A program made the position numbers and the translations under genes. A DNA stretch of 64,000 nucleotides from Candidatus Omnitrophota bacterium. GTDB lineage: Bacteria; Omnitrophota; Gorgyraeia; B26-G9. The notes beneath the pieces are model-generated. The model made no database searches. It saw only the letters and a program-made list of their open reading frames with translations, and was not told the origin of the DNA. The stretch lies in the NCBI GenBank assembly GCA_043826565.1, contig JBDRPX010000038.1, positions 70,334-134,333 on the forward strand, given 5' to 3'. The stretch's first letter is position 1. Every line of letters begins with the position of its first letter. This document shows positions 7,048-58,025 of this stretch, piece by piece.

Positions 7048-7663
7048 GGTCAAAATTTGCGGTATAACCAATAAGCGCGATGCCCTTAATGCTGTAAAAT
7101 TGGGGGCTGATGCAATTGGTTTTATGTTTGCCAAAAGTCCTCGCAGAATATCTGTTGACACAGCGGCAGGTATTATTAAAGAATTACCGCCGTTTGTTTC
7201 TACGGTTGGTGTTTTTGTTGATGCGGATAAAGAGAAGGTTTTGTCTATACTTAAAAAGTGCAAATTGGATGTACTGCAATTCCATGGGCAGGAAAATGAT
7301 AACTACTGTCTTTTCTTTAAAAAATATTGTAAAATAATAAAAGCATTCCGGCTGCAGGATCATAATTCCTTAAAACTGATCCGCAAGTATAAAAACATTG
7401 ATGCTATTCTTTGTGATAGCTTTGATGCGAAAAAGATCGGAGGGACCGGTAAGGTTTTTAAATGGGATTTGCTAAAAGGGGTTAAATTTAATAAACCTTT
7501 AATAATTGCCGGAGGTGTTTCTTCTATAAATGCAAAGGGAATAGTTGGGTTATTAGCACCTTTTGCCTTGGATATTTCCAGCGGAGTGGAATCGTCTCCG
7601 GGAAAAAAAAGCGAGAGAATGATGCGTGATTTTATGAACGAGGTTAACAAAATAACACTTTAA
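7040..7663 (+). CDS. trpF: phosphoribosylanthranilate isomerase
   Basis: Starts MPKVKICGIT; 207 aa; matches the PRAI fold. Confidence 0.85.
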   Translation: MPKVKICGITNKRDALNAVKLGADAIGFMFAKSPRRISVDTAAGIIKELPPFVSTVGVFVDADKEKVLSILKKCKLDVLQFHGQENDNYCLFFKKYCKIIKAFRLQDHNSLKLIRKYKNIDAILCDSFDAKKIGGTGKVFKWDLLKGVKFNKPLIIAGGVSSINAKGIVGLLAPFALDISSGVESSPGKKSERMMRDFMNEVNKITL

Positions 7664-8538: not shown

Positions 8539-9723
8539 ATGGCAATAATGCCTGATTATAACGGATATTTTGGTCCTTTCGGCGGTAAGTTTGTCCCGGA
8601 AACCTTGATGGCGGCCTTAAAGGAGCTTGAAATTTATTATAAAAGTTCGCAAAAAGATCGTCATTTTCAAAAACAATTACAATTCTATTTGAAAGAGTTT
8701 GCCGGAAGGCCGACGCCTTTATATTATGCGCAAAGGCTAAGTTCATATCTGGGAATCAAAGTTTATTTAAAAAGAGAAGATTTGCTTCATACCGGTGCGC
8801 ATAAAATTAATAATACTCTCGGGCAGGTACTGTTGGCGATGAAAATGAAAAAAAAACGTATCATCGCAGAAACCGGAGCCGGGCAGCACGGAGTGGCAAC
8901 TGCGGTTGCTGCGGCACGTTTTGGTTTTGAGTGTGAAGTTTTCATGGGAGAAGAAGATATGCATCGGCAGGAATTAAATGTTTTTCGGATGAAGCTGCTT
9001 GGGGCAAAAGTCTCTTGTGTGTCTTCCGGAAGCAAGACTTTGAAAGATGCTACTAATGAAGCTATCCGTAATTGGGTGAGTAATGTTCGAACTACACATT
9101 ATATCCTGGGATCAGTTGTCGGACCACATCCTTATCCGGTTATGGTACGTGATTTTCAGTCGGTTATCGGCAAGGAAGCGCGAGTGCAGATATTAAAAAA
9201 AGAAAACAGGCTTCCGGATTATTTACTTGCGTGTGTCGGCGGCGGAAGTAATGCGATTGGACTTTTTCATGCGTTCTTTAATGATAAGAAAGTAAAAATA
9301 TGCGGTGTAGAAGCTGCCGGCTGTGGATTATCTTCAGGCAAGCACTCTGCCAGTTTATCTTGTGGCAGAGTCGGAGTGCTCCATGGAAATAAGAGTTATC
9401 TTTTACAGGACGCTGACGGTCAGATAAAAATTGCACATTCTGTTTCCGCGGGACTAGATTATCCCGGGGTCGGCCCGGAGCATTCTTATTATAAAGATAT
9501 CGGGAGGGCAACATATGTTGGGATAACAGATAAGGAAGCTTTGGGGGCTTTAAAGAAACTTTCTCAGCTGGAAGGAATTATCCCGGCACTTGAATCGGCA
9601 CATGCAGTTGCTTATTTACTTAAGGCGGCAAAAAAGATGAGAAAAAATAGTGTTGTAATATTATGCTTATCCGGCAGAGGGGATAAAGACATGGAAATGG
9701 TTTCAACTTTGAAGGTGCTCTAA
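8539..9723 (+). CDS. trpB: tryptophan synthase beta chain
   Basis: PLP-lysine region [11 protein letters not shown] and a GGGSNA motif. AGGAG RBS. Confidence 0.92.
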
Positions 9724-10520
9724 TGAATAGAATTGATGCGAAAAATGCATTACTTAAAAAAAATAAGAAAAAAGCTTTTGTTGCCTATATTACTGCCGGA
9801 TTCCCTAATACGGCTGTTACGGAAAAACTAATCCCTGTTCTCGAGAAAAATGGAGCGGATTTTATTGAATTGGGTATGCCGTTCTCGGACCCGATAGCCG
9901 ATGGCCCGACGATCCAGAAATCTTCATACATTGCTTTAAAAAACGGCATGACCATGAATAAATTTTTCAGGCTGGTAAGAAATGTGCGCAAAAAGTCACA
10001 GGTACCGCTGATAATGATGACCTATTATAATCTTATTTACAATTATGGATTTAAAAGATTCGCGGAAATTGCCAGGAAATCAGGACTTGATGGGGTAATT
10101 GTCCCGGATTTGCCGATTGAGGAAGCGCAGGATTTAAATGAAAATTTAAGGTCAGAAAAAATATCATTAATTTTTCTAATTTCTCCGGTAACCGAAAAAT
10201 CGCGCATGAAAAAAATCTCTAAAGTTTCCGAAGGATTTATTTATTATGTTTCTTTAACCGGAGTAACCGGTGTTCGGGATAAGCTTCCGGATGATTTAGT
10301 TGAAAATGTGAGGCTCATAAAAAATGTTACCAAGAAACCTGTTTATGTCGGTTTTGGAGTGTCTACCTCGGAACAAGTCAAGCAGGTTTCCGAGACGGCA
10401 GATGGGGTTATTGTCGGTAGCGCGATAATAAAAGCGATTACGGAAAATTACGGGAAAAAGGATTTTTTAAAAAAAGTTGGCCGATTTATTGCGGCGCTTA
10501 GTAAGGGAGTTAACGGATGA
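9723..10520 (+). CDS. trpA: tryptophan synthase alpha chain
   Basis: TrpA motifs (ELGMPFSDPIADGP, GFGVS). TAATG overlap with trpB. Confidence 0.88.
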   Translation: MNRIDAKNALLKKNKKKAFVAYITAGFPNTAVTEKLIPVLEKNGADFIELGMPFSDPIADGPTIQKSSYIALKNGMTMNKFFRLVRNVRKKSQVPLIMMTYYNLIYNYGFKRFAEIARKSGLDGVIVPDLPIEEAQDLNENLRSEKISLIFLISPVTEKSRMKKISKVSEGFIYYVSLTGVTGVRDKLPDDLVENVRLIKNVTKKPVYVGFGVSTSEQVKQVSETADGVIVGSAIIKAITENYGKKDFLKKVGRFIAALSKGVNG

Positions 10521-12223
10521 CTGATTATGATCGCCTGGGTGAATTACTAATCCAGAAAAAGATTATAACTGAGGAGCAGCTTGAAAATGCATTAATCAGG
10601 CAGAAAAAGTCTAATTTAAGACTTGGCGAAGAGCTCATTCGCAGTGGGATGGTAAATGAGGAAAGTGTTTTATCTATTCTTGCGGAATCGATGAATATAC
10701 CGTTTATAAAATTAAGAGACGAAACAATAGACGAACAGCTTATTGAAAAGATTCCCGCCCGTTTTGTTACTCACTATAATTTCATGCCTTTACGTGAGGA
10801 TGGGGGAATTCTCGCTATTGCGATTAGTGACCCCCATGATTTATATACCATAGATGAGATAAGATTATTATTAAAACAGCCGTTGAAAATATTTTTGGCA
10901 ACTTCTTTAGAAATAAGTGAGGCGATAAAGAAATTTTATGGGGTGGGAGCCAAAACTATGGCCCAGATGTTTGAAGATTCCCAACAGCTGGAAATTATTC
11001 CTCAGAAAGAAAAAGACATTACCCAAGAAAGTGCCGATGGAACAGACGACCCTTCGGTAATAAATTTTATAGATCAGGTTATCCGCCAGGCAGTAAAGGA
11101 AAGAGCTACTGATATACATATTGAGCCTTATGAAGGTAATTTGCGTTTAAGGTATAGGATTGATGGTTTGCTTTACGATGTGCCTGTTCCTTCGACAATA
11201 CATCATTTTCAATCGGCAATTTTTATTAGGTTAAAAATTATGTCGGATTTGGATATTGCCGAAAAAAGATTACCGCAAGACGGCAGGATAAAAGTTAGGG
11301 TCGATGGTGAGTTTTATGATTTGAGAATTTCAATTTTGCCGACAAATTTCGGGGAAAGTATAGAAATAAGAATACTTTCCAGGAAACAGATATTTTTTAA
11401 TTTAGAACAACTAGGGCTGGATAAGATCGGCTTAGCTATCCTTAATAGCATGATAAAACGGCCGCATGGGATAATTCTGGTTACCGGGCCCACTGGCAGC
11501 GGAAAAACCACCACGTTGTATTCATGTTTAAACAAGATTAACGCTGCCGAAAGAAAGATTATAACGATTGAAGATCCTATAGAATACCAGCTTCAGGGAG
11601 TTACGCAAGTACAGGTTAGGCCTAAGATCAATCTTACCTTTGCGGATGGTTTGCGCTCTATGCTCAGACATGATCCGGATATCATGATGGTCGGAGAAAT
11701 TCGTGATTTAGAAACAGCAGAGTTGGCCATAAGAACGGCCTTGACCGGTCATTTGGTGTTCAGTACTTTGCATACTAATGATGCTCCGGGAGCGGTTGCC
11801 CGTTTATTGGATATGGGAATTGAGCCATATTTGGTAGCATCTTCACTTGATTGTGTGATTGCTCAGCGTTTGGTGCGTTTGGTATGTCCGCATTGCAAAG
11901 AAAAAATCAAGCTTCATGAAGAGTTGCTTAGGGAATTTGGAATAAGCACGGAAAAACTCATTGCCCAGGAGTTCTGCCAAGGACGTGGATGTGAAAAATG
12001 TAACTTCACCGGGTATCATGGCCGTACGGCTATTTTTGAAGTGCTTAATATCGATGATTCCATTAAAGAAATGATCCTTAATCGTATCCCGACTAATACA
12101 ATTAAACAAAAAGCTATTGAAAATAAATTAAAAACACTTAGACAGTCAGGATGGGAAAAAGTGATTGCCGGATTGACAACTCCTGAGGAAGTAATTCGTG
12201 TAACGCAGGAAGATACTATATAA
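10517..12223 (+). CDS. gspE: GspE/PilB-type secretion ATPase with N-terminal MshEN-like motifs
   Basis: Walker A GPTGSGKTTT and a C-terminal tetracysteine (CPHC…CEKC). The N-terminal GSPII_E_N carries two RLGxxLxxxGxIxxxxLxxALxxQ-like repeats (RLGELLIQKKIITEEQLENALIRQ, RLGEELIRSGMVNEESVLSILAE). Start overlaps the trpA stop (ATGA). Confidence 0.88.
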   Translation: MTDYDRLGELLIQKKIITEEQLENALIRQKKSNLRLGEELIRSGMVNEESVLSILAESMNIPFIKLRDETIDEQLIEKIPARFVTHYNFMPLREDGGILAIAISDPHDLYTIDEIRLLLKQPLKIFLATSLEISEAIKKFYGVGAKTMAQMFEDSQQLEIIPQKEKDITQESADGTDDPSVINFIDQVIRQAVKERATDIHIEPYEGNLRLRYRIDGLLYDVPVPSTIHHFQSAIFIRLKIMSDLDIAEKRLPQDGRIKVRVDGEFYDLRISILPTNFGESIEIRILSRKQIFFNLEQLGLDKIGLAILNSMIKRPHGIILVTGPTGSGKTTTLYSCLNKINAAERKIITIEDPIEYQLQGVTQVQVRPKINLTFADGLRSMLRHDPDIMMVGEIRDLETAELAIRTALTGHLVFSTLHTNDAPGAVARLLDMGIEPYLVASSLDCVIAQRLVRLVCPHCKEKIKLHEELLREFGISTEKLIAQEFCQGRGCEKCNFTGYHGRTAIFEVLNIDDSIKEMILNRIPTNTIKQKAIENKLKTLRQSGWEKVIAGLTTPEEVIRVTQEDTI

Positions 12224-16008: not shown

Positions 16009-17589
16009 GTGAAAATCAATATTTGGTTAATACTGATAATCGGGGCTGCTGTACTTAGCGTAGTGGTTATTGTTGATAGCATGGTTGCTAAGCTAATGGG
16101 CGGGTTTATACTTTTGGTATTATTAGCATATCTGGCGGAACTTTCCCGAGAGGAAAGAGAGCAGATCTATAAAATGCAGCGTGCTTTGGATAAATTAAGA
16201 AATGCATATAGTGAACTGGATGAACAGGCAAAAATTATTATTCGCACTGACTTAGAACTAAATCGCACACAAGAAGAGCTGGATAAGAAAATTAACGGTT
16301 TATATACGCTGCATGAACTTGGAAAACTAATGAGTTCCGCGCTTGATGTTCAAAAGCTTTTTGCCCAGATAACTGAACCGCTTATTCTTAAACTTGGGTT
16401 TGAGAAAACTATTATATTTCTTAACGAAGGTATTCCTCCTAAAGCCGAATGTAAGGCTTGTATCGGACTTAGCCATTCCCGCATTGAGGAGCTTAAGCAG
16501 GAGCATCTAAAAAGCGAGTTCCTTAAAGGGGTTTTTGAAAGCGGTAGTTCTATTCTTGTTAAAAGCCGGGAGTCGGCAAACCCGGAAGAACGCATATGGC
16601 TTAAATTCTTTGATGTTTCTTCATTTGTAATTGTTCCGATTGTTATAAAAGAGCAGGTGGAAGGGTATATCTTCGTCGGGAACAATAATCCTTATGTGCA
16701 TATTTCCGAGGGTGATATTGATTTAATGTTTATTTTATCAAATCAGGTTGCCGTTGCTTTGGAAAATGCCCGTCTTTATGAAGAATTAAAACGCTCTCAT
16801 GATGAGCTGGAAATTCGCGTGGAAGAAAGAACCCGTGAATTGGCGGAAGCGAATACTAAACTTGTAAAACTTGACAAGATGAAGTCTGACTTTGTGTCTG
16901 CTGTTTCGCATGAATTACGTACTCCGCTTACTTCCATAAAAGGATATGCGGCAATTCTTGGTGCCGGCCGGCTGGGGGATGTCTCAGATGTACAAAAAGA
17001 AAAATTAAATAAAATCAATGTGCATAGTGATGAATTGATTAAGCTGGTAAATGATCTTTTAGATATCGCGCGGATAGAATCCGGCAAAATCGGCATGAGT
17101 ATTAAACATTCATCATTAACTGATATAATTAAGAGTGTGGCTGACTTATTCTTTCCTCAGACTGATGAAAAGAATATTAATTTAGTGCTCAATATGCCGG
17201 AGGAAGCATTATTGGTTTGGATGGATCCGAGCCAAATATCCCGTGTTTTTATAAATTTAATTGGTAATGCATTGAAATTCACGCCTCAAGGCGGTGAAAT
17301 AGCCATACGTGTTTTACCGGGTGATGATTTTATAACTGTTGAAGTTGCCGACTCAGGTATCGGGATAAGTAGAGAAGATTTAGCCCGGGTTTTTGATGAG
17401 TTTTATCGGGTTGACAACGCAATTAATGTTGAGAAAAAAGGAACTGGTTTAGGTTTGCCGCTGGTCAGTAAAATTGTGGCTGCACATAAAGGAAAAATCT
17501 GGGTTTCAAGTGAACTGGGTAAGGGGACAACATTTCATTTTACGTTATCCACTAATAAGGTGGAAGATTCACAGATAAATGTTGCTTGA
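16009..17589 (+). CDS. membrane GAF-domain sensor histidine kinase
   Basis: GTG start 5 nt after the FIST stop. Two TM helices, a GAF domain, an H-box SHELRTPL, and HATPase_c motifs (GNALKFT, DSGIGI, GTGLGL). Confidence 0.85.
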   Translation: MKINIWLILIIGAAVLSVVVIVDSMVAKLMGGFILLVLLAYLAELSREEREQIYKMQRALDKLRNAYSELDEQAKIIIRTDLELNRTQEELDKKINGLYTLHELGKLMSSALDVQKLFAQITEPLILKLGFEKTIIFLNEGIPPKAECKACIGLSHSRIEELKQEHLKSEFLKGVFESGSSILVKSRESANPEERIWLKFFDVSSFVIVPIVIKEQVEGYIFVGNNNPYVHISEGDIDLMFILSNQVAVALENARLYEELKRSHDELEIRVEERTRELAEANTKLVKLDKMKSDFVSAVSHELRTPLTSIKGYAAILGAGRLGDVSDVQKEKLNKINVHSDELIKLVNDLLDIARIESGKIGMSIKHSSLTDIIKSVADLFFPQTDEKNINLVLNMPEEALLVWMDPSQISRVFINLIGNALKFTPQGGEIAIRVLPGDDFITVEVADSGIGISREDLARVFDEFYRVDNAINVEKKGTGLGLPLVSKIVAAHKGKIWVSSELGKGTTFHFTLSTNKVEDSQINVA

Positions 17590-17597
17590 AAGGAAAA

Positions 17598-18536
17598 ATG
17601 AGGAAGCAGAAAATTCTTATTGTTGATGATGAGCCGGATATTCGTGATGTGTTAAAGATTACGCTTGAGTGCGAAGGATATGATGTCGTTGAATCTACCG
17701 ATGGGATAGACGGTCTTTCCAAAGTGCATAAAGCAGCTCCGGATCTTGTAATTTTGGATAATAAGATGCCGAAGATGACCGGGCAAGAAGTGTGTGAGAT
17801 ATTAAAAAAAGATATCCTTCTGAGGCATATGCCGATTATTATGCTGACCGGAAAAGGAGAGATCCAGGATAAAATTAAAGGAATTGACGCCGGAGCAGAT
17901 GATTATATAGTAAAGCCGTTTGAGCCGCAAGAGCTGGTTGCGAGAATAAAAATGATTTTACGTAGAAGTTCACGAGATTTGGATGCTAATCCGTTAAGTC
18001 GTTTGCCGGGAAATGCGACAATCTTAAGTGAATTGGAAGATGCGATAAAAAGTAATAAACCCTTTGCCATATGCTATCTGGATCTTGACAAATTTAAATC
18101 TTTTAACGATACTTATGGATTTGAACATGGAGATGAGGTTATCCGGGAAACCGCCAGAATTATTCTCATGACAGTTATCGAAATGGGGAACAAAGAGGAC
18201 TTTGTCGGACATATCGGTGGTGATGATTTTGTTGTACTTACTACTTTGGATAAAGCAGAGCCTATTTGTAAAAAAATAATTGAGGCTTTCGACAAAGTTG
18301 CTCCGGCTTTTTATAATTTAGAGGACCGGCAGCGAAAATATATTCTGGCTAAAGATCGGAAGGGGAATGCGGAAAAGATTCCGCTGATTTCAATCTCGAT
18401 AGGAATTGTAACGAATGAGTTTCGGACGATTACCCATGTGGCGGAAATTGGCGAAATCGGAGCGGATTTAAAGAAACTGGCAAAGGCAACTCCGGAAAGC
18501 AATTATGTCCGAGACAGCCGTAAAACTGAAGCATAA
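17598..18536 (+). CDS. response regulator: REC + GGDEF-like domain (GGDDF variant)
   Basis: REC domain (ILIVDDEPD…LDNKMP). The GGDEF fold is recognisable (LDLDKFKSFNDTYGFEHGDEV…HIGGDDFVV), but the signature reads GGDDF and the I-site RxxD is replaced by KED. Confidence 0.75.
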   Translation: MRKQKILIVDDEPDIRDVLKITLECEGYDVVESTDGIDGLSKVHKAAPDLVILDNKMPKMTGQEVCEILKKDILLRHMPIIMLTGKGEIQDKIKGIDAGADDYIVKPFEPQELVARIKMILRRSSRDLDANPLSRLPGNATILSELEDAIKSNKPFAICYLDLDKFKSFNDTYGFEHGDEVIRETARIILMTVIEMGNKEDFVGHIGGDDFVVLTTLDKAEPICKKIIEAFDKVAPAFYNLEDRQRKYILAKDRKGNAEKIPLISISIGIVTNEFRTITHVAEIGEIGADLKKLAKATPESNYVRDSRKTEA

Positions 18537-20361: not shown

Positions 20362-20875
20362 TTTAAAAGGAGTTTTTAACCCTGCACCTCATAAAACATT
20401 ATTCGATTTTCCCTTCCGCTCACAACTCTTTTTTATTTGACTAACTTATAGCAAGAGAGTATTATTTATACATCACAATGGCAGAACTTAGGCAAGTCCT
20501 AAAAATGGCTTTTAAAAGGCACCTTTAGTGCAATCTTCCGCATAACTGGTGGAGAACGAGTAGTTCTAACGATAGTATGAATAAAAAACAATGCATAACA
20601 TAGTTTAAATGAATGGCCACAAATAATTATATTCAAAATGTCAAAAATAATAATTGAAAACCGTTCAATAAACGTTTTTGGCAACGCAATTACCATGATC
20701 ATATTATCCGCAATACTAAATCATTGAATAAAATCCGTGAATATATTGTAAATAATCTTGCAACGTGGGATAATACTGAAAACAACCTGAATAATAAAAA
20801 TTATTAGACGCAATCAGAGGTTAAACCCGTTGACTTTTCCCGGCAAAAACCTTAAACTAATACTAGTATAAATTT

Positions 20876-20951
20876 GGGGTCATAGCTCAGCTGGGAGAGC
20901 GCCTCGTTCGCAACGAGGAGGCCGGGGGTTCGAGTCCCCCTGACTCCACCA
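20876..20951 (+). tRNA. tRNA-Ala(CGC)
   Basis: Manual cloverleaf: 7-bp acceptor stem with the G3:U70 Ala identity pair, anticodon loop TTCGCAA, T-loop GGGGG-TTCGAGT-CCCCC, CCA encoded. Confidence 0.85.
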
Positions 20952-20976
20952 GTTTAAAATAAGAAAAGGCGAATAT

Positions 20977-21870
20977 ATGAAAATACTAAACTATATAATT
21001 AACCTTATATTGATTATCATAATATTGTCATTTCCTTTAGAGAGTAGCGCAGAAATAAATGTCGGGGATAGCCGGGAAGAAGTTATTATGCAATTAGGCG
21101 TTCCCTCAGGTCAATTAAAGAGTGATTCTGAAGAGATCCTTACATATTCTCAGGGATTTGTTACTATTTTAAACGGTAAAGTAATAAATATGAGCGATAA
21201 TTTTAAAAGTGTAGCTTCAACGGAGCATGACGATGTTTCTATTGGCAGTACCCGGGGAGATGTTATTGCTGTATATGGTCAACCCTCCGGAGAACTTCAA
21301 AGCGGAGAAGAAGATATCCTCACTTATCCCGGGGGAATTATTACGATAAAAGATGATAAAGTTATTTATATGGATGATGATTTTAACGCCCGCTTAGATG
21401 ACCGCAAAAAAGATGATGCGTTTAAAGAGCAGCAAAAAGCCAAAGGCCTGGTTTGGTATTACGGCAGATGGGTTACTCAGCAGGAACAGAGTGAAATGGA
21501 AAGAAAACTTTCCCAGGACAAAGCGAAAAAGAATTTGGAAGCTCAGCCTATACTCATTTTTTCTTCCGGTGGACAGGCTCTAGATATTAAAGAAGTTCTT
21601 GTCCCGAATAAAATTACAATAATTGATTTTTATGCCGATTGGTGCGGGCCCTGCCGGCAAATCTCTCCATATCTTGAGCAGATCGCTCGTAATGACCCGG
21701 ATGTTTATTTAAGAAAGATTGATATTGTAAATTGGCAGACCCCGATAGTCGCGCAATACAGCATCAAAAGTGTCCCCAATATTCGTGTTTTTAACCGAAG
21801 CGGGAAAATGGTTGGTCAGCCGACATATGATTTAAATAAAATCCAGGAATGGGTCCAAAGTTCAAAATAA
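20977..21870 (+). CDS. secreted thioredoxin-domain protein with two N-terminal ~50-aa repeats
   Basis: Signal peptide. Internal repeats (VGDSREEVIMQLGVPSGQLKSDSEEILTY… and IGSTRGDVIAVYGQPSGELQSGEEDILTY…). C-terminal WCGPC thioredoxin motif. Confidence 0.7.
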   Translation: MKILNYIINLILIIIILSFPLESSAEINVGDSREEVIMQLGVPSGQLKSDSEEILTYSQGFVTILNGKVINMSDNFKSVASTEHDDVSIGSTRGDVIAVYGQPSGELQSGEEDILTYPGGIITIKDDKVIYMDDDFNARLDDRKKDDAFKEQQKAKGLVWYYGRWVTQQEQSEMERKLSQDKAKKNLEAQPILIFSSGGQALDIKEVLVPNKITIIDFYADWCGPCRQISPYLEQIARNDPDVYLRKIDIVNWQTPIVAQYSIKSVPNIRVFNRSGKMVGQPTYDLNKIQEWVQSSK

Positions 21871-21908
21871 TTTGCTTTTAATATTTTTCGCTAACTTTAG
21901 GAGGATAA

Positions 21909-22445
21909 ATGATAAGAAGAATTGCCCTGTTCATATTGGCGGTAATGTTCTGTGTCCCTTTGCTGGGATTAAACGGGTGTACAAAAAAAGAAAAAGACCC
22001 GGATAGATTCTACAGCAGTATCTATGGATTTTCCATAAAATTCCCTCAAGGATGGCAGACAACTCAGGATAAGGATACAGTTGTTAGTGCCCTAAGCCCC
22101 TTTGAGGATGATCAGGATATTCTACAGGAAGCTGTCGGCGTCATTGCTCAAAATCATTATTTGCCGATTTTACTTGATGATTGGTTTGCTTCGGTGCGGA
22201 GTGAAGCACGAGAAACTATTTTGCGATATCGTGAAATTGAAACCGGCCAGATGGTTATCGGAGATATTAATCTCAAATGGATAAAACGCAGCTATTTTGA
22301 CGATATTGGTGAGATTGTGGATAAATCCTATTGTTTTGTTAAAGGAAATCGAGGCTATATTATTTCCTGCAATTCCCAGCCTGATAAATTCAGTAAATAT
22401 GAAAAACTATTTGAAGAATCTGTAAAAACATTCCGATTTGAGTGA
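21909..22445 (+). CDS. putative lipoprotein (PsbP-like fold?)
   Basis: Signal peptide with LNGC lipobox-like cysteine. AGGAGG RBS. Confidence 0.5.
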   Translation: MIRRIALFILAVMFCVPLLGLNGCTKKEKDPDRFYSSIYGFSIKFPQGWQTTQDKDTVVSALSPFEDDQDILQEAVGVIAQNHYLPILLDDWFASVRSEARETILRYREIETGQMVIGDINLKWIKRSYFDDIGEIVDKSYCFVKGNRGYIISCNSQPDKFSKYEKLFEESVKTFRFE

Positions 22446-22451
22446 TTTGAA

Positions 22452-22661
22452 ATGATTCCGCTTATTATACTACTATTTGCTATTCTTGTAATCGTGCTTA
22501 AAAATGCCGGATTAATTCACAACCCCATAGTTGTCTTCGTAATCGCTTCAGTAATTATTATCTGCTCAGCATTTCTTCTAAAAGATAATTTGACTATTTC
22601 TTCGGATACTGATAAATCCATTAAATCGGAGGCGTGTTCATGCAAGAGCTCGAATCATTAA
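22452..22661 (+). CDS. small hydrophobic protein
   Basis: 69 aa with two predicted TM helices. Overlaps the next gene's start. Weak call. Confidence 0.3.
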   Translation: MIPLIILLFAILVIVLKNAGLIHNPIVVFVIASVIIICSAFLLKDNLTISSDTDKSIKSEACSCKSSNH

Positions 22662-23242
22662 ATATGTTGATGGTTTCTCAAAAAAAAGAATGGGGTGAGA
22701 TTCTCAGCGGTTTTGAAACAAAAAATAAATATGTTATTAAGGATCAAAACGGTAGCAATATTTATTGTGCCGGTGAAGTCGGCGGGAATTGGTTTTTACG
22801 TGTTTTTCTGAAAGCGTTTCGACCATTCACATTGGATGTAAGAGGATTTGATAATCGGCCGATTATTCGTTTAATTAGGCCTTTTCGATTTTATTATCAT
22901 AAAGCAGACATTTTTAAGTCGGATGGCGGCCTGCTGGGGACAATAAAAAAAAACTTTTCTTTTTTGGCAAGAAAATACTCTATATTCAATGATTCGCAGG
23001 AAGAGATCTATCAGCTTTTTGGCCCGATATTCCATCCTTGGACTTTTATAATTAAGCAGAATGGGAGGGAAGTCGGAAAAATTGCAAAAAAATGGAGCGG
23101 GCTTTTCAAAGAGGGCTTTACGGATGCGGATAATTTCGCGGTTGTGTTTCCTGCCGAAGCAGATCTAACAGATAAAGGACTGCTTTTAGGAGCAGTGTTT
23201 TTAATTGATTTTGTCCATTTTGAAAATACCGGTAATAGTTAA
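22640..23242 (+). CDS. scramblase/LURP-one-related (tubby-like, DUF567) family protein
   Basis: Family resemblance (…KNKYVIKDQNG…RPFTLDVRG…YSIFNDSQEEIYQL…). GGAGG RBS before the ATG at 22640. Confidence 0.5.
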   Translation: MQELESLNMLMVSQKKEWGEILSGFETKNKYVIKDQNGSNIYCAGEVGGNWFLRVFLKAFRPFTLDVRGFDNRPIIRLIRPFRFYYHKADIFKSDGGLLGTIKKNFSFLARKYSIFNDSQEEIYQLFGPIFHPWTFIIKQNGREVGKIAKKWSGLFKEGFTDADNFAVVFPAEADLTDKGLLLGAVFLIDFVHFENTGNS

Positions 23243-23268
23243 TTTAGTAAAAAAGGAGAAATACAATA

Positions 23269-23772
23269 ATGAGAATACTAGATCCAAAATTCAACCAGAA
23301 CAAAGCTAGCTATTTTTTGCAAAGTTTGCTGGCAACATTAGCGATCTTTGTCGTTCTGATATTGCTTGATGCCCGAACAAACTCAGCAGTTATCGCTGCT
23401 TTGGGGGCAAGTTCGTTTATTGCTTTTACCATGCCGCACGCTGAGCTTTCCCAGCCAAAATTTTTGATTGGAAGCTACCTGTTGGGGATTATATCTGCCG
23501 GTATTTGTTATTATTTGTCGATACTGCCGTTTATTAAGCAAATCCCTTTTGTTTCTGACTTTTCCTGTATTATTTTTGGCTCTATTGCTGTCGGTCTGGT
23601 AATATTTTTAATGGTCATTACCAATACTGAACATCCTCCGGCAGCCAGCTTGGCTTTAGGACTTGTTTTTAATTTATTTAATCTTAAGTCAGTATTCATT
23701 GTTTTTAGCGGCATTGTGTGTCTTTCGATTATTAAAGCCATATTAAAACCGGTTCTGAAGGATTTGATATAG
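23269..23772 (+). CDS. HPP-family integral membrane protein
   Basis: Four-TM HPP-like profile (…AALGASSFIAFTMPHAELSQP…). Confidence 0.5.
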   Translation: MRILDPKFNQNKASYFLQSLLATLAIFVVLILLDARTNSAVIAALGASSFIAFTMPHAELSQPKFLIGSYLLGIISAGICYYLSILPFIKQIPFVSDFSCIIFGSIAVGLVIFLMVITNTEHPPAASLALGLVFNLFNLKSVFIVFSGIVCLSIIKAILKPVLKDLI

Positions 23773-23776
23773 AGTC

Positions 23777-24898
23777 ATGCAAAGGGAATCATTTAAAAAA
23801 ATCAATAGAAGAGATTTTTTAAAACTATGCCTGGGAACAACCGGGTACTTGGTTGCTGAAGATGTCCCGGAATTATTTGCGTATGATGCTCCTGTAGAAG
23901 CATTACACTATATAAAAGATCCTAAAAATACAATTAAATGTGTGCTTTGTCCTCATCAGTGTATTATCAGCAGCGGGGAAAGAGGCTTCTGCCGGGCCAG
24001 GGAAAATAAAAACGGAAAATTATACAGTATTGTTTACGGAAAACTTTGTGCGGTGCATAGCGACCCCATAGAAAAAAAACCGCTTTTTCATGTTTATCCC
24101 GGCTCGAACTCTTTTTCTTTAGCTAGTGTAGGCTGTAACCTGCGCTGTAAATTTTGTCAGAATTGGCAAATTTCCCAAGCAAAGCCAGCGGATGTTCAAG
24201 CCGTAAAACTTACTTCCGATGTTTTAGTCGCCAAAGCCGTTCAGTCCGGCTGTAAAACAATTGCGTATACCTATACTGAGCCGACAGTATATTATGAATA
24301 TATGCTTGATGTGGCGAAAATAGCGAAAAAAAATAATATCGCCAGTGTATTACATTCAAATGGATTTATAAATCCCGATCCTTTACAGGAGTTATTACCG
24401 TATGTAACAGCGATGAATGTCGATCTTAAAGGATTTACGAATGAATATTATGCTGAAATTTGTTCGGGGAATCTGCCAAGTGTCTTAAATAGTCTGAAGA
24501 TTATTAAGCAGATGGATGTTTGGCTTGAATTAACAAACCTGGTCATACCTACTTTAAATGACCAAAGTGATAATATAAAAAGAATGAGCGCCTGGATATT
24601 AAAGGAATTAGGGGATGATGTTCCGGTTCATTTTTCCCGCTTTTTCCCTATGTATAAATTAGCCAAGCTGCCGCCAACAACACTTAGTACACTAGAACAG
24701 GCAAGAAATACCGCGATGAGTGAAGGACTTAAATTTGTGTATATAGGTAATGTTCCCGGACACTCGGCAGAAAATACTTATTGCCCAAATTGCAATAATA
24801 TGATTATTAAGAGAGTAGGGTATTCGGTTGTGGAAAATAACTTGATCAATAATATGTGTTCCGGTTGCAAAACGAAGATATCCGGGGTATGGTCATGA
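23777..24898 (+). CDS. amrS: AmmeMemoRadiSam system radical SAM enzyme (AmrS) with predicted Tat signal
   Basis: Radical SAM motif CNLRCKFCQNW typical of AmrS. N-terminal NRRDFLKLCLGTTGYLVA twin-arginine motif. Confidence 0.75.
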   Translation: MQRESFKKINRRDFLKLCLGTTGYLVAEDVPELFAYDAPVEALHYIKDPKNTIKCVLCPHQCIISSGERGFCRARENKNGKLYSIVYGKLCAVHSDPIEKKPLFHVYPGSNSFSLASVGCNLRCKFCQNWQISQAKPADVQAVKLTSDVLVAKAVQSGCKTIAYTYTEPTVYYEYMLDVAKIAKKNNIASVLHSNGFINPDPLQELLPYVTAMNVDLKGFTNEYYAEICSGNLPSVLNSLKIIKQMDVWLELTNLVIPTLNDQSDNIKRMSAWILKELGDDVPVHFSRFFPMYKLAKLPPTTLSTLEQARNTAMSEGLKFVYIGNVPGHSAENTYCPNCNNMIIKRVGYSVVENNLINNMCSGCKTKISGVWS

Positions 24899-26391
24899 AA
24901 ACCAATAGATTAATAATTTTGTTCTTCTTAAGTGGGATATTTTTAATTATTTGTTTTTCCCCGTGGGGCTGGACTGCGCAAACCGGAAATATTAAAAAAC
25001 CTGATTTTGCGGAATTGTTCTATCCTGCCGACCCGCAAAGATTAGAAAATGCAATTGAAAGTTATATTAGTAAAGCATACTTAGCTGAAGTTCCGCACGA
25101 TATCCGGGGACTTATCAGTCCGCATGCCGGATATGTCTATTCCGGGCCGGTTGCTGCCTATGGATACAAATCTTTACTTGGGAAAAAATACAAAACGGTT
25201 ATTATCCTTGCGCCCTCACACAATAAATTCCTTGAGCATATTGCGGTCTACGCAAATGGTGCTTTTGAGACACCTTTAGGAAAAGTAAAAATAGATACTG
25301 AATTTACCCGTGCCTTAATGGCGGATAATCGTGATGTTCAACACATCCCGGATGTTTTTAATAATGAACATTCCCTGGAAGTTCAAATACCGTTCTTACA
25401 AAAAGTACTTATTGATTTCAAAATCGTACCGATTATAATCAGCAGTCATTCTCTATCTATGTGTGATAGTTTAGCGAAAAGCCTTGTAAAAACAATGGGC
25501 GAAAGGAATGATGTGCTGATCCTTGCCAGTTCCGACATGTCTCATTTTCACAATCAGGAAATAGCCGCGCAAATTGATCAGGAAACAATATCTCTGATTG
25601 AAGATTTTAATGTTTCTAAGCTTTTCCAGCAGATTCAAGCACGCAAATCAGAGCTTTGCGGAGGGGATCCGGTTATTGCTCTTTTGCTGGCGATGAAAAG
25701 TCTTAATGCTACTGATGTTCAATTGTTGAAGTACGCAACATCATATAATACTACTGGTAGTAACGATAAAAGGGTTGTCGGTTACAGCAGTATCATTTTT
25801 TCCTTAAGTGCTAATCTTTCCGGAAGAGAAGGGAGTTCTCATATGTTAACTCAAGAGCAAAGAACTAAGCTGTTAAAAATCGCCAAAGATTCAATCCGGG
25901 AGTATGTTTTGACTCATAAACGAATTATAATTGAAGAAAATGATCCGGCATTATTGCAAAAACAAGGTGCTTTTGTAACAATTAAAAAGAATGGGCAATT
26001 AAGAGGATGTATCGGGCGTATTGTTGCCGATACTTCATTGGCCAATACTGTTAGTGAGATGGCTATTCAAGCGGCTACCAGTGATCCCCGTTTTGCGGCT
26101 TTGGATAAAAATGAATTAGATTTAATTACTTTGGAGATATCAGCAATGTCGCCGATAAAACAAATTGATACTATTGAAGAGATAGTCGTTGGTAAGCATG
26201 GGCTGATTATCCAAAAAGGTTTTTCTTCGGGACTATTATTGCCCCAGGTAGCTACGGAATACAATTGGACACGTGAGGAGTTTTTACAGCAAACCTGCCG
26301 TAAGGCCGGGCTGAGAGCTGAGGATTGGAAAAATAATGCACAAATATATATATTTAGCGCAGAGGTTTTTAAAGAGAAGGAGTTAAAATGA
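24895..26391 (+). CDS. amrBA: fused AmmeMemoRadiSam protein B (Memo-like) + protein A (AMMECR1) with Sec-type signal peptide
   Basis: N-terminal hydrophobic signal. Memo-like half (ISPHAGYVYSG…ILAPSHN…). AMMECR1 half (GAFVTIKKNGQLRGCIG…). ATGA overlap with amrS. Confidence 0.75.
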   Translation: MKTNRLIILFFLSGIFLIICFSPWGWTAQTGNIKKPDFAELFYPADPQRLENAIESYISKAYLAEVPHDIRGLISPHAGYVYSGPVAAYGYKSLLGKKYKTVIILAPSHNKFLEHIAVYANGAFETPLGKVKIDTEFTRALMADNRDVQHIPDVFNNEHSLEVQIPFLQKVLIDFKIVPIIISSHSLSMCDSLAKSLVKTMGERNDVLILASSDMSHFHNQEIAAQIDQETISLIEDFNVSKLFQQIQARKSELCGGDPVIALLLAMKSLNATDVQLLKYATSYNTTGSNDKRVVGYSSIIFSLSANLSGREGSSHMLTQEQRTKLLKIAKDSIREYVLTHKRIIIEENDPALLQKQGAFVTIKKNGQLRGCIGRIVADTSLANTVSEMAIQAATSDPRFAALDKNELDLITLEISAMSPIKQIDTIEEIVVGKHGLIIQKGFSSGLLLPQVATEYNWTREEFLQQTCRKAGLRAEDWKNNAQIYIFSAEVFKEKELK

Positions 26392-26777
26392 ATCATAAGA
26401 TCTTAGTTGTTGATGATGAAAAAGAAATGGTAGAAGTTCTGAGCACCACTCTTAAACGGGCTGGTTATGATGTGGACACGGCAAATAATGGGAGAGAGGC
26501 TCTGGGAGCGTATTTAGAATCTCTGCATCGAGAACCTTTTTCATTAATGACTCTGGATATAAAGATGACGGGGATAGATGGCTTGGAAGTGCTGGAAATC
26601 ATCAGAAAAGAGGAGGAATTAAGAGGGATCCCCCTCGGTAAAGGTATTCCGATCATTATGAGTACTGCGTTTGCTACTCCTTGGCCGGAAGCATTTAAAA
26701 AAGGCTGCGACGACTATATCTTAAAGCCTTACAAAATGGAAGACCTTTTAGGCAAGATAGAAGATAAGATCAAATAG
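26388..26777 (+). CDS. single-domain response regulator (CheY-like REC)
   Basis: ILVVDDEKE … LDIKMTGIDG…; 129 aa with no output domain. ATGA overlap with amrBA. Confidence 0.75.
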   Translation: MNHKILVVDDEKEMVEVLSTTLKRAGYDVDTANNGREALGAYLESLHREPFSLMTLDIKMTGIDGLEVLEIIRKEEELRGIPLGKGIPIIMSTAFATPWPEAFKKGCDDYILKPYKMEDLLGKIEDKIK

Positions 26778-26884
26778 GCACTTATGCGGCCATGCTCTAT
26801 TTTCTTGTTTTTTAACGTGTATATATGTTATTATAATTAAAAATTTAGTTTTGATTGAATAATAATTCGGTTGAGGAGGTAGGT

Positions 26885-27325
26885 ATGCCAAAAATACTAG
26901 TTATCCACGGGCCTAATTTAAATTTGCTGGGGGAAAGAGAGCCGGAAATATACGGAGTAGTTACCTTGGAAAGTATTAATAAAAAGGTAGTTGAATGGGG
27001 AAATACACATAATATAGAAGTTGATACTTTTCAATCTAATCATGAAGGTGAAATCGTTGATATTATCGGTAAATCAAAGAGGGATTATACCGCAATTGTA
27101 ATTAATCCGGCAGCGTATACCCATACCAGTGTAGCGATTCGGGATGCAATTAGTGCGGTGGGTATTCCGACTGTAGAAGTACATCTTTCCAATATTCATG
27201 CGAGAGAAGATTTTCGCCATACCTCAGTTATTGCTTCAGTAAGCTGTGGCCAAATATGCGGGTTTGGAGAAGACAGCTATATGCTCGGGCTTGAAGCTGT
27301 ACTCAGCGTGATAAAAAAATCTTAA
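26885..27325 (+). CDS. aroQ: type II 3-dehydroquinate dehydratase
   Basis: ILVIHGPNLNLLG…INPAAYTHTS…HLSNIHARE signature. GAGGAGG RBS. Confidence 0.88.
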   Translation: MPKILVIHGPNLNLLGEREPEIYGVVTLESINKKVVEWGNTHNIEVDTFQSNHEGEIVDIIGKSKRDYTAIVINPAAYTHTSVAIRDAISAVGIPTVEVHLSNIHAREDFRHTSVIASVSCGQICGFGEDSYMLGLEAVLSVIKKS

Positions 27326-27330
27326 TTAAA

Positions 27331-28371
27331 ATGGAAAATCAGCGAATTTTAAAAGTGAGAGGTTTTTTAAGACGTCACGGGTTTGATGCTTTTTTAATTA
27401 CTTCCTTGGCAAATATTAGGTATCTAAGCGGGTTTACCGGAGGTGACTGTTATATATTATTAACAAAAACAGAAAATATTTTTATTGGTGACTTCCGCTA
27501 TACACTCCAGGCGGAAAAAGAGCTTGATAAATCTTTTCGGATTGAAATGATAAAAAATGGATTGTCTTCGCTCCTTAAGGAATTTATTTCGGGAAAAAAA
27601 CTTCATTCTCTGTGTTTTGAAGATAAACATATAACTGTATCTTTTTTTAACAGGATAAAAAAAAGCCTGCCAAAAATTCACCTTATTCCGACTAGTAATG
27701 TGATTGAGAAGCAGCGTATAATTAAGACAGATAAAGAGATTGCCCTAATTTCTAAAGCAGTCGATATTACCAAACAGGCTTTAAACAAATTAAAACCATT
27801 TATTAAGCCGGGAATAACTGAAATATGGATTAAAAATAAACTGGATTATTTATTGAAAAGCTTTGGCGGACAGCAGCCCTCTTTTGATATTATTGTTGCG
27901 TCAGGGCCTAACGGAGCAATGCCGCATGCTGGGACAACGACACGCCAAATTCAAAAGAACGAACCGATTATTGTGGATGTCGGAACTGTTTTTGAAGGTT
28001 ATAAATCCGACTTGACAAGGACATTTTTTTCAGGTAAAATGACGCAATATGCTCATTACTATAAACTTATTGCTGCAGCGCAAAAAAAGGCAATAAGTTT
28101 AATCCGACCCTCGGTGAAAATTCGAGACATCGACCTGGCTGCTCGTAATTATTTAAAAAGAAACAAGGTAGATAAGTATTTCGGGCATGCTTTAGGCCAT
28201 GGTGTTGGGTTGGAAGTACATGAGGAACCAAGAATATACTGGAAAAACAGTCAGCGGTTAAAACCCGGCATGGTTTTTACAGTGGAGCCGGGTATATATA
28301 TCCCTGAATGGGGCGGCATTAGAATTGAAGATATGGTTTTAGTGACTAAGAAAGGGTGTAAGGTTTTATAG
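27331..28371 (+). CDS. pepP: Xaa-Pro aminopeptidase (M24 family)
   Basis: M24 metal ligand motifs (HGxGHGVGLEVHE, EPGIY). Confidence 0.8.
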   Translation: MENQRILKVRGFLRRHGFDAFLITSLANIRYLSGFTGGDCYILLTKTENIFIGDFRYTLQAEKELDKSFRIEMIKNGLSSLLKEFISGKKLHSLCFEDKHITVSFFNRIKKSLPKIHLIPTSNVIEKQRIIKTDKEIALISKAVDITKQALNKLKPFIKPGITEIWIKNKLDYLLKSFGGQQPSFDIIVASGPNGAMPHAGTTTRQIQKNEPIIVDVGTVFEGYKSDLTRTFFSGKMTQYAHYYKLIAAAQKKAISLIRPSVKIRDIDLAARNYLKRNKVDKYFGHALGHGVGLEVHEEPRIYWKNSQRLKPGMVFTVEPGIYIPEWGGIRIEDMVLVTKKGCKVL

Positions 28372-58015: not shown

Positions 58016-58025
58016 AACAGGTCAC

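Follow-up and report, generated by a model that had tools for sequence, protein, structure and literature searches.

We judge it slightly better than an even chance that the locus studied here, within a 64-kb window (the whole 64,000-nucleotide stretch of Candidatus Omnitrophota DNA that was analysed), encodes an extracytoplasmic variant of the AmmeMemoRadiSam system, periplasmic or membrane-proximal, in which the radical SAM enzyme AmrS would be exported folded through the Tat pathway and a fused Memo-AMMECR1 protein (AmrB-AmrA) through Sec. This reading draws on gene content, sequence motifs, their conservation among relatives, the co-occurrence of signals and a set of conserved partners, all of which were observed directly (table 1). 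Because they depend on SAM, on a low-potential reductant and on Fe-S assembly, radical SAM enzymes are regarded as strictly confined to the cytoplasm; we know of no radical SAM enzyme that works outside the cytoplasm, nor, to our knowledge, are SAM and a low-potential reductant available there. A conserved clade of AmrS proteins with predicted export signals and exported or membrane partners challenges that view. In the searchable literature on AmmeMemoRadiSam and on radical SAM enzymes together with Tat we found no treatment of an exported AmrS; a 2019 JBC paper by Burroughs et al. reportedly deals with the gene contexts of Memo and may touch on signals.

Table 1. Features of the AmmeMemoRadiSam locus and its surroundings, in window coordinates
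Feature	Position	Strand	Detail
Exported thioredoxin-domain protein	20977..21870	+	Signal peptide, WCGPC motif; PF00085 match
Scramblase/LOR-like protein, upstream	22634..23242	+	PF03803 at 7.8e-49
HPP-family membrane protein	23269..23772	+	Ends 4 nt before amrS; PF04982 match
amrS, AmmeMemoRadiSam radical SAM enzyme, 373 aa	23777..24898	+	TIGR04337 match, residues 48-372
Predicted Tat-type signal peptide of AmrS, residues 1-35	23777..23881	+	Putative cleavage L-F-A↓Y-D; outside family profile
Twin-arginine consensus N-R-R-D-F-L-K, residues 10-16	23804..23824	+	Direct sequence reading
h-region LCLGTTGYLVA, residues 17-27	23825..23857	+	11 uncharged residues, weakly hydrophobic; maximum KD10 1.46
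Radical SAM cluster motif C120-x3-C124-x2-C127	24134..24157	+	Invariant in alignment A1
ATGA overlap, amrS stop/amrB-amrA start	24895..24898	+	Direct reading
amrB-amrA fusion, 498 aa	24895..26391	+	ATG at 24895; Memo ~25000-25794, AMMECR1 ~25873-26370
Predicted Sec-type signal peptide or anchor of AmrB-AmrA, MKTNRLIILFFLSGIFLIICFSPWGWTA↓Q	24895..24978	+	Maximum KD12 3.05
Stand-alone CheY-like receiver, 129 aa	26388..26777	+	Response_reg (PF00072) 79 bits

The three AmmeMemoRadiSam modules are co-localised in adjacent, overlapping genes, an arrangement shared with five syntenic relatives (loci L081-L085). AmrS reaches 359.4 bits in the family profile search with TIGR04337 (curated cut-off 220), also matches Pfam Radical_SAM and is 100% identical to an Omnitrophota MAG protein at NCBI. 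Its AF2 model has a core with pLDDT >90, for which the top PDB fold match is the pyruvate formate-lyase (PFL)-activating enzyme 3cb8 (TM-score 0.78 on the target), and the best sequence match of solved structure is 3c8f (E = 2e-7). Besides the cluster motif, alignment A1 groups the C-terminal cysteines C336/C339/C361/C364 as invariant, and among the N-terminal cysteines C55, C58 and C72 are invariant and C62 is present in at least 90% of sequences. In the partner protein, the AmrB module scores 274 bits against TIGR04336 (cut-off 26) and 232 bits against Pfam Memo (PF01875, residues 36-300), and the AmrA module 190 bits against TIGR04335 (cut-off 99) and 189 bits against Pfam AMMECR1 (PF01871, residues 327-492), with 1zq7 and 1vaj as its PDB relatives. 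The Memo module keeps PHAG, PSH, SSDxxH and CG, motifs that align with the metal-site residues of MEMO1, and an LRGCIG motif is found in the fusion. The ATGA overlaps reported at both junctions in the first-pass annotation were confirmed directly, that between amrS and amrB-amrA and a second at 26388-26391, where the receiver gene begins; the same 4-nt amrS/amrB-amrA overlap occurs in L081, L083, L084 and L085, and in L082 the overlap of the called genes is 34 nt.

Since the family profile match begins at residue 48, AmrS carries ~41-45 extra N-terminal residues, a segment that reads MQRESFKKINRRDFLKLCLGTTGYLVAEDVPELFA↓YD. The Tat consensus S/T-R-R-x-F-L-K within the first ~35 residues is found here as N-R-R-D-F-L-K at positions 10-16, and among the 86 window ORFs of 100 aa or more, no other has an RRx-hydrophobic motif at its N-terminus. 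The h-region of 11 residues (clade median 14, IQR 12-16; ~12-20 uncharged, moderately hydrophobic residues expected of a Tat substrate) is too short for a bilayer span or membrane anchor, contains a C-L-G-T-x-G-Y-L motif that is kept across the window's AmrS subclade, and is followed by L-F-A↓Y, where a Tat substrate would have a small-x-small site. The flanking charges are strongly asymmetric, with a net charge of about +5 on the N-flank and no K/R and five D/E on the C-flank, and the AF2 model renders residues 1-40 at low confidence as a detached helix at 11-27 and then a disordered linker ahead of the core. The predicted signal is textbook in its RR motif and borderline as a whole: the AmrS N-terminus stays below both curated Tat models (16.5 vs 16.7 bits for TIGR01409; 15.1 vs 22.7 for PF10518), and three of nine relative N-termini tested exceed the TIGR01409 cut-off (P0012, 17.5 bits; P0026, 20.5; P0037, 25.4). 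No tat genes (tatA, tatC) lie within the 64-kb window; in an Omnitrophota relative (L002, a MAG), tatA-tatC lie 2.5 kb from a Tat-type amrS.

An N-terminal extension of this kind could be an annotation artefact, with the real amrS start downstream and the RR segment untranslated. The Shine-Dalgarno before the ATG at 23777 is indeed weak or distant, and an in-frame TTG exists at codon 25; however, this TTG, the only such candidate, has no Shine-Dalgarno of its own, and no in-frame ATG occurs in amrS before about residue 178. Conservation at the protein level is decisive, as the extension is present in 113 of the 119 nearest AmrS relatives and a 15-mer within it (RRDFLKLCLGTTGYL) is identical in P0012, a relative with 57% overall identity to AmrS. 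Orthologs lacking the extension, combined with an alternative downstream start, had been named beforehand as the mark of a mis-called start, and the near orthologs instead retain it; the conserved extension rules out such a start, and we regard the artefact as effectively refuted.

The AmrB-AmrA fusion begins with a hydrophobic, Sec-type segment, with MKTNR as its n-region and W-T-A↓Q as its c-region. Alanine occupies -1 and a non-canonical tryptophan -3, and the predicted signal may for this reason be an uncleaved anchor. A comparable signal-like N-terminus is present in 100 of 114 homologous Memo-AMMECR1 fusions (19 of them lipobox-like), and canonical AxA sites or lipoboxes are seen among these homologues. 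The first-pass claim of export signals on all three modules amounts to two signals on two polypeptides, with AMMECR1 riding on that of Memo.

These N-termini are not peculiar to the window. A perfect RRxF[LI]K with low hydrophobicity occurs in 39 of the 119 nearest AmrS relatives (F at +3 in 39/39, L/I at +4 in 39/39, K at +5 in 35), the remainder being mostly very hydrophobic and Sec-like. Median KD10 is 1.75 in N-termini with the motif versus 3.16 in those without (Mann-Whitney p = 8e-15), and the classic Tat/Sec dichotomy, as predicted from these features, holds among AmrS N-termini. An N-in/C-out charge bias is seen in 40/44 Tat-type AmrS, 62/64 Sec-type AmrS and 93/100 Memo-AMMECR1 proteins. 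The signals reach as far as the domain boundary, with AxA-like sites coming after them in 43/44 and 65/69 sequences. Both AmrS and Memo-AMMECR1 are signal-bearing in 22 loci, and the pairing of a Tat-type AmrS with a Sec-type Memo-AMMECR1, first noted in this locus, recurs across phyla. On a neighbour-joining tree of 255 AmrS cores, signal state changes 16 times, versus 105 +/- 4.5 after shuffling, with ~9 gains or losses of the signal and ~8 Tat/Sec switches; the predicted export-signal trait follows phylogeny and is heritable. It is found in >12 bacterial phyla and in 0/6 archaeal loci, and most of the distant AmrS representatives have no N-terminal signal.

The same variability lends itself to a second explanation, that the N-termini are membrane tethers and not export signals, keeping AmrS and Memo-AMMECR1 on the inner membrane, on its cytoplasmic side (monotopic or N-out/C-in), where SAM, Fe-S assembly and reductants would be at hand and the substrate could be lipid-linked or membrane-bound, with polytopic partners. 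Tat-like, Sec-like and absent N-termini interchange among proteins of 55-60% identity, as might be expected of tethers, and the Sec-type AmrS proteins, ~60% of the nearest relatives, keep all Fe-S cluster cysteines; we know of no maturation route for an Fe-S enzyme exported by Sec. We nevertheless consider tethering unlikely. Conservation of the RRxFLK consensus goes well past the needs of a tether, the short and weakly hydrophobic h-regions of RR-type AmrS (median 14 residues; 11 in the window) cannot anchor a protein, the N-in/C-out charge bias holds for more than 90% of sequences, and AxA sites and lipoboxes are present.

The partners and fusions of AmrS in related loci bear on the same choice. 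DUF362 genes adjoining amrS, some of them overlapping it, also begin with RRxFLK-type signals, and AmrS is fused behind a signal and a beta-propeller in P0244 and behind a signal and a CBM-like domain in P0248, in both cases with no intervening TM helix; Tat signals on neighbours and fusions to extracellular-type domains without a second TM helix both speak against a cytoplasmic tether. Other fusions are less one-sided. AmrS is joined to FMN_bind domains in which the ApbE motif DxxSGAT is present, but in P0259 and P0274 the charge bias is ambiguous or inverted, for which reason we gave the FMN_bind-AmrS fusions less weight as evidence that AmrS lies outside; in these two and in the triple fusion P0255, K/R is more frequent behind the helix than ahead of it, in keeping with a tether. 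Fusions to NapH-like (Fer4_5) domains (P0241, P0242), for which crude TM counts disagree, could likewise put AmrS on the cytoplasmic side. DsbD_2 occurs as a neighbour in six loci or as a fusion partner of AmrS; together with the FMN_bind fusions and the exported thioredoxin upstream in the window's subclade, it makes up a redox setting in keeping with extracytoplasmic action. A polytopic spermidine-synthase-like (SpeE-like) partner, whose SAM-fold domain is predicted to be periplasmic, adjoins amrS in 39/69 export-type loci and 0/12 others; no such partner was found in the 64-kb window.

Closer to home, the coupling of the system to an orphan receiver that had been proposed for this locus proved to be specific to the genome. 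The receiver gene is overlapped by amrB-amrA, is preceded by a strong AAGGAG Shine-Dalgarno and encodes the residues of its family (acidic pair DD9-10, D57, S/T and K). None of the five syntenic relatives (0/5, L081-L085) has a receiver downstream of AmrB-AmrA, the position being taken by aroQ, glycosyltransferases or convergent T2SS ATPase genes, and receiver matches in 80 other loci have no consistent position relative to the system. Because it is not conserved beside the system, the receiver is probably a local neighbour standing outside it, and we rejected it as a component on synteny. Upstream, the HPP-family gene occupies the same slot in L081, L082 and, by a weak match, L084, the Scramblase/LOR-like gene is kept in L081 and L083, and thioredoxin homologues lie at most 3 kb upstream of amrS in L081, L082 and L084. 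All three were rejected as general partners, being confined to the window's own subclade, where their presence may be plain vertical synteny. A promoter and terminator scan of positions 20500-27600 was uninformative, with 35 promoter-like sites (24.6 expected) and no terminator between genes.

From these data we infer how export, cleavage, the substrate and the supply of electrons and SAM might fit together in an extracytoplasmic system. AmrS, a PFL-activase-like radical SAM enzyme with three predicted Cys-ligated metal sites, would fold and receive its Fe-S clusters in the cytoplasm and then be exported folded through Tat by its RRDFLK signal, with cleavage probably near L-F-A↓Y. Memo and AMMECR1 would need no cytoplasmically assembled cofactor and could leave as one polypeptide on a single Sec-type signal, with the ATGA overlap providing translational coupling of amrS and amrB-amrA and hence matched amounts. 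Outside the cytoplasm the three modules would then act jointly on a substrate of the envelope or periplasm; in relatives, reducing power may cross the membrane by way of DsbD-like, thioredoxin or FMN-binding/NapH-like modules.

The genetic coupling would also fit a 1:1 relation of enzyme and substrate, and AmrS could conceivably be a cytoplasmic maturase that modifies an exported substrate, the Memo-AMMECR1 precursor or another, before export, its own signal being secondary (e.g., for co-targeting to the translocon). A signal-less AmrS is paired with an exported (Sec or lipoprotein) Memo-AMMECR1 in five loci, and the nearest solved fold is that of a protein-activating enzyme, PFL-AE; the HXS system offers a precedent, its radical SAM maturation being a cytoplasmic step that precedes product export (PMC13128918). 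This account leaves unexplained, however, both the complete and conserved signals that most AmrS proteins of the clade carry themselves and the AmrS proteins fused behind signal-bearing extracellular-type domains, and we hold it to be quite improbable. Cytoplasmic-type systems comprise the same three modules with none exported, so that export of the partner does not define the function of AmrS.

Returning to extracytoplasmic action, the distribution of the signals suggests, as a prediction only, that SAM-dependent radical chemistry takes place outside the cytoplasm in many bacterial phyla. In its widest form, which we advance tentatively and give somewhat less than an even chance, a large, multi-phylum AmrS clade would work there, exported with its Fe-S clusters, with SAM either co-exported (tightly bound and regenerated) or supplied through the SpeE-like partner and with electrons delivered by DsbD-like, thioredoxin or flavinylated FMN modules. 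If true, it would be the first case of radical SAM chemistry outside the cytoplasm, and it would point the function of Memo and AMMECR1 toward modification of an envelope component. The triad has eukaryotic homologues linked to disease, and a handle on its function that narrows the substrate search to the envelope would be of corresponding value.

Compared with known systems, the locus agrees with the canonical AmmeMemoRadiSam system (TIGR04335/TIGR04336/TIGR04337) in having all models far above cut-off, adjacent genes and intact radical SAM and Memo/AMMECR1 motifs. It differs in that AmrS bears a predicted Tat-type signal, whereas the archaeal AmrS proteins of L046, L065, L072 and L075 have no N-terminal signal, in the fusion of AmrB and AmrA behind one Sec-type signal, and in the SpeE-like, DsbD_2 and DUF362 membrane or periplasmic partners that its relatives add. 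AmrS relatives with fusions to ApbE-motif FMN_bind domains, NapH-like Fer4_5 membrane domains or DsbD_2 resemble the extracytosolic flavinylated electron-transfer modules (PMC8238504); however, the survey of those modules names neither radical SAM enzymes nor Memo or AMMECR1 among their partners (PMC8238504), and none of the FMN_bind, NapH-like or DsbD domains is present on the window's own AmmeMemoRadiSam proteins. With PFL-activating enzyme and the other glycyl-radical activases AmrS has in common the CxxxCxxC cluster and partial TIM barrel, but PFL-AE is cytoplasmic and signal-free, AmrS has additional N- and C-terminal four-Cys sites, and a glycyl-radical substrate is known for no AmrS. 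A parallel is offered by Fe-S proteins that leave through Tat (hydrogenase small subunits, NrfC, Rieske), with an RRxFLK motif, a weakly hydrophobic h-region, a cofactor-bearing passenger that has to fold before export and, putatively in AmrS, an AxA-like site, although the AmrS passenger is a SAM-dependent radical enzyme instead of an electron-transfer subunit and its signal falls slightly under the curated TAT HMM cut-offs. Finally, the anSME/AtsB-sulfatase and HxsBC-HxsA systems likewise pair a radical SAM enzyme genetically with a signal-bearing protein. In these systems (for HxsBC-HxsA, PMC13128918) the radical SAM enzyme remains cytoplasmic and only the product is exported, whereas in the window it is the radical SAM enzyme itself that bears a predicted export signal.

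The Pfam matches at the locus are to Radical_SAM, Memo, AMMECR1 and Response_reg, and reading of the open reading frames returned exactly the coordinates of the first-pass annotation for all three, with both of the ATGA overlaps it had described (amrS with amrB-amrA, and amrB-amrA with the receiver gene) present in the sequence. The closest solved relative of the radical SAM enzyme AmrS, by sequence and by fold, is the PFL-activating enzyme; the Memo module retains motifs aligning with the metal-ligand residues of the MEMO1 metal site, and the AMMECR1 module retains LRGCIG.

The AmrS family profile begins only at residue 48, leaving the extension MQRESFKKINRRDFLKLCLGTTGYLVAEDVPELFA followed by YD; AmrB-AmrA begins with MKTNRLIILFFLSGIFLIICFSPWGWTA followed by Q. 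Of the 86 ORFs of 100 aa or more in the window, AmrS alone has an RRx-hydrophobic N-terminal motif. An extension of at least 18 residues is present in 113 of the 119 closest AmrS homologues in which the first Cys motif could serve as an anchor, the motif R-R-x-F-[LI]-K recurs in 39 homologues (Phe in 39/39, Lys in 35), and one homologue that is only 57% identical overall (P0012) carries the identical 15-mer RRDFLKLCLGTTGYL. AlphaFold2, run on a 20-sequence alignment, gave the AmrS core a pLDDT above 90 from residue 41 and rendered residues 1-40 as a low-confidence detached helix (11-27) and then a disordered linker; there is no in-frame ATG in amrS before about residue 178. The first-pass annotation had proposed an exported three-module system with a Tat signal on AmrS, open to the objection that orthologs without the extension, together with a downstream start, would expose a mis-called start. 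Given the conserved extension, the shared 15-mer, the detached helix and the lack of an early in-frame ATG, that objection fails: the extension is genuine, and a mis-called start is ruled out by its conservation and the missing ATG.

Several independent features agree in identifying the N-termini of AmrS and Memo-AMMECR1 as predicted export signals. Median maximum hydrophobicity (KD10) is 1.75 for RR-motif AmrS N-termini versus 3.16 for motif-less ones (p = 8e-15), weak hydrophobicity with the RR motif and strong hydrophobicity without it being the known Tat/Sec dichotomy. An N-in/C-out charge bias is found in 40/44 Tat-type AmrS, 62/64 Sec-type AmrS and 93/100 Memo-AMMECR1 N-termini, 43/44 and 65/69 AmrS sequences have a small-x-small site after the h-region, lipobox-like sites (e.g., L-S-A-C) occur in 19 Memo-AMMECR1 fusions, and predicted cleavage sites fall a few residues ahead of the conserved domains. 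The uncharged h-region of the window AmrS spans 11 residues (clade median 14), a length too short for a membrane anchor. This N-terminus scores below curated cut-offs (TIGR01409, 16.5 vs 16.7 bits; PF10518, 15.1 vs 22.7), and three of nine relative N-termini tested exceed that of TIGR01409 (17.5, 20.5 and 25.4 bits). The c-region of the window AmrB-AmrA has Trp at position -3, and its signal could be an uncleaved anchor instead of a cleaved one. The AmrS h-region (window 23825-23857; homologues P0003-P0025) is also conserved in sequence, as C-L-G-T-x-G-Y-L, beyond hydrophobicity alone. Signal peptides do not usually show this, and it might reflect a dedicated signal-binding chaperone.

Window genes, and partner genes and fusion proteins in relatives
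Feature	Location (window, locus or protein)	Strand	Assignment
amrS	window 23777-24898	+	TIGR04337, 359 bits (cut-off 220)
amrB-amrA, fused gene	window, ATG 24895, end 26391	+	TIGR04336, 274 (cut-off 26); TIGR04335, 190 (cut-off 99)
Receiver, 129 aa	window 26388-26777	+	Pfam Response_reg
SpeE-like examples	L062:3826-5976, L037:7150-9393, L009:3498-5795, L004:1300-3411, about 35 more loci		
DUF362 with RRxFLK-type Tat signal	L006:4997-6001; L080:4857-5867, 11048-12064; L033:4781-5869		
DsbD_2	L009:2890-3558, L023:7027-7707, L005, L008, L013, L015		
AmrS fusions with FMN_bind, NapH-like Fer4_5, propeller or CBM	P0241, P0242, P0259, P0272, P0274, P0244, P0248		
Triple-fusion examples	P0254, P0255, L060:5946-8390; P0334, P0335, P0345, P0348, P0370, P0374, P0380, P0388		

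A pattern scan that took one genome from each GTDB species yielded at least 600 confirmed relatives, of which the best 80 loci were kept and analyzed with our own HMMs for the three modules. Among these best 80 of at least 600, Tat-type AmrS occurs in Omnitrophota, KSB1, Acidobacteriota, Bacteroidota, Ignavibacteriota, Desulfobacterota, Planctomycetota, Verrucomicrobiota, Zixibacteria, Myxococcota and other phyla, and none of the six archaeal loci has the extension. When sequences are reduced to representatives at 50% identity, AmrS has matches in 1542 clusters at E <= 1e-30, the best 150 of which include about 31 Tat-like, 15 Sec/TM-like and 88 signal-less. Mapped onto a neighbour-joining tree built from 255 AmrS cores, the none/Tat/Sec state takes 16 changes versus 105 +/- 4.5 with tips shuffled; N-terminal type is thus a stably inherited character, although it has switched several times. 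Tat-type, Sec-type and signal-less AmrS all conserve the SAM-cluster cysteines together with two additional four-Cys sites. One locus (L001) has two tandem amrS paralogues, of which the first (~4700-5700) lacks any signal and the second (5973-7146) carries an RRDFLK signal.

Among loci with a complete Memo(+AMMECR1) gene inside the fetched flank, 22 have signals on both AmrS and Memo(-AMMECR1), five combine a signal-less AmrS with a Memo-AMMECR1 of the Sec or lipoprotein type (L004, L042, L048, L053, L061) and one or two have neither; the exported forms are Memo-AMMECR1 fusions behind a single signal. Single-chain triple fusions also exist, as Memo+AMMECR1+AmrS and AmrS+Memo+AMMECR1, with an N-terminal TM segment (none in L060), and proteins of ~900-1150 aa ordered AmrS+AMMECR1+Memo are signal-less.

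Five syntenic relatives (L081-L085) share the order amrS, amrB-amrA with the window, with a 4-nt overlap in four of them and a 34-nt one in L082. None of the five has a receiver downstream of amrB-amrA, where aroQ, glycosyltransferase or convergent T2SS ATPase genes lie instead; the window receiver, whose residues are canonical and whose AAGGAG Shine-Dalgarno sequence is strong, is therefore probably an insertion specific to this genome with no conserved link to the system, and its earlier-proposed coupling to AmmeMemoRadiSam is not borne out. Its nearest kinase is a histidine kinase and receiver-GGDEF pair ~8 kb upstream (window 16009-18536), syntenic with L081:538-3094. Upstream of amrS, a scramblase-like gene (window, L081, L083), an HPP membrane protein (window, L081, L082) and an exported thioredoxin (window, L081, L082, L084) are conserved in the window's subclade only and may thus reflect plain synteny. 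Window 20977-23772 holds envelope-type genes throughout, abutting or overlapping on one strand: the thioredoxin (with BamE-like repeats), a putative lipoprotein (21909-22445), a small membrane protein (22452-22661) and the scramblase-like and HPP proteins. GC skew is positive over 1-56 kb and negative over the remainder of the window. The few ORFs seen beyond ~56000 (57629-59900) lie on the minus strand, a hint that the coding strand changes there.

Beyond the window, export-type loci have recurrent partners. A protein of ~700-790 aa adjoins amrS, often overlapping it, in 39/69 export-type versus 0/12 other loci (Fisher p = 2e-4; best loci of at least 600). It is SpeE-like (PF01564; NF037959 'fused MFS/spermidine synthase'; PRK03612-like), with ~7 TM helices, a spermidine-synthase-like domain and ~6 TM helices. 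In the consensus of 32 sequences, read by the positive-inside rule, the 309-residue SAM-fold domain lies opposite all K/R-rich loops, which means that it is predicted to be periplasmic. The L009 copy has GGGVGG in place of the canonical SpeE GGGDGG. No SpeE-like gene occurs within the 64-kb window. DUF362 genes directly upstream of amrS likewise start with RRxFLK-type signals and overlap it in L006 and L033. In an Omnitrophota MAG (L002), a Tat-type amrS has tatA (9440-9637) and the start of tatC (9648-9935; PF00902, 80 bits) 2.5 kb downstream, with nothing but a SpeE-like gene on the other strand in between.

In six Omnitrophota loci (best loci of at least 600), DsbD_2 membrane proteins directly follow an amrS of the Sec type, never one of the Tat type, and they are fused to the AmrS N-terminus in P0246, P0266 and P0272. 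AmrS is also fused behind FMN_bind domains with the ApbE flavinylation motif DxxSGAT (a topology that is ambiguous), behind NapH-like Fer4_5 membrane domains and, with no second TM helix, behind a signal plus a beta-propeller (Reg_prop/PorZ-like; P0244) or CBM-like domain (CBM_11-like; P0248). According to a flavinylation survey in which radical SAM, Memo and AMMECR1 go unmentioned, FMN_bind, NapH-like and DsbD modules are extracytosolic electron conduits (PMC8238504).

A periplasmic variant of the AmmeMemoRadiSam system is the best-supported reading of these predictions, and one to which we give slightly better than even credence. Tat would carry AmrS, an Fe-S enzyme needing folding and cluster loading before export, and Sec the fused, cofactor-free Memo-AMMECR1; translational coupling would match their amounts, electrons would be supplied across the membrane, and we infer an envelope-located substrate. 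That radical SAM chemistry here genuinely takes place outside the cytoplasm, served by a dedicated membrane partner with a SAM fold, is a tentative proposal, somewhat more apt to be wrong than right. Three points sit badly with export: neither SAM nor a low-potential reductant is known outside the cytoplasm; ~60% of near AmrS relatives are Sec-type despite invariant cluster cysteines, and Fe-S insertion after Sec export has no known route; and the five loci with signal-less AmrS and exported Memo-AMMECR1 do not fit. These misfits keep two rivals alive: that the N-terminal segments merely tether the proteins while catalysis stays cytoplasmic, which we consider unlikely, and that AmrS is a cytoplasmic maturase like anSME or HxsBC, acting before its product's export (PMC13128918), which seems quite improbable. 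Each leaves unexplained the conserved full Tat consensus and short h-regions, as well as the Tat-signal DUF362 neighbours and extracellular-type domain fusions.

The window comes from a Candidatus Omnitrophota MAG, and public records already label the proteins of the system as parts of AmmeMemoRadiSam; AmrS matches at 100% identity an NCBI entry named 'AmmeMemoRadiSam system radical SAM enzyme', which lies on a 134.5-kb contig. The searchable literature, whose reach stopped short of Burroughs et al. 2019, yielded no discussion of export signals on these proteins; that study reportedly connects the contexts of Memo with the modification of nucleotide bases and isoprenoids. What is new here is a fused form of the system, tagged for predicted export and with conserved membrane and putative periplasmic partners of its own.
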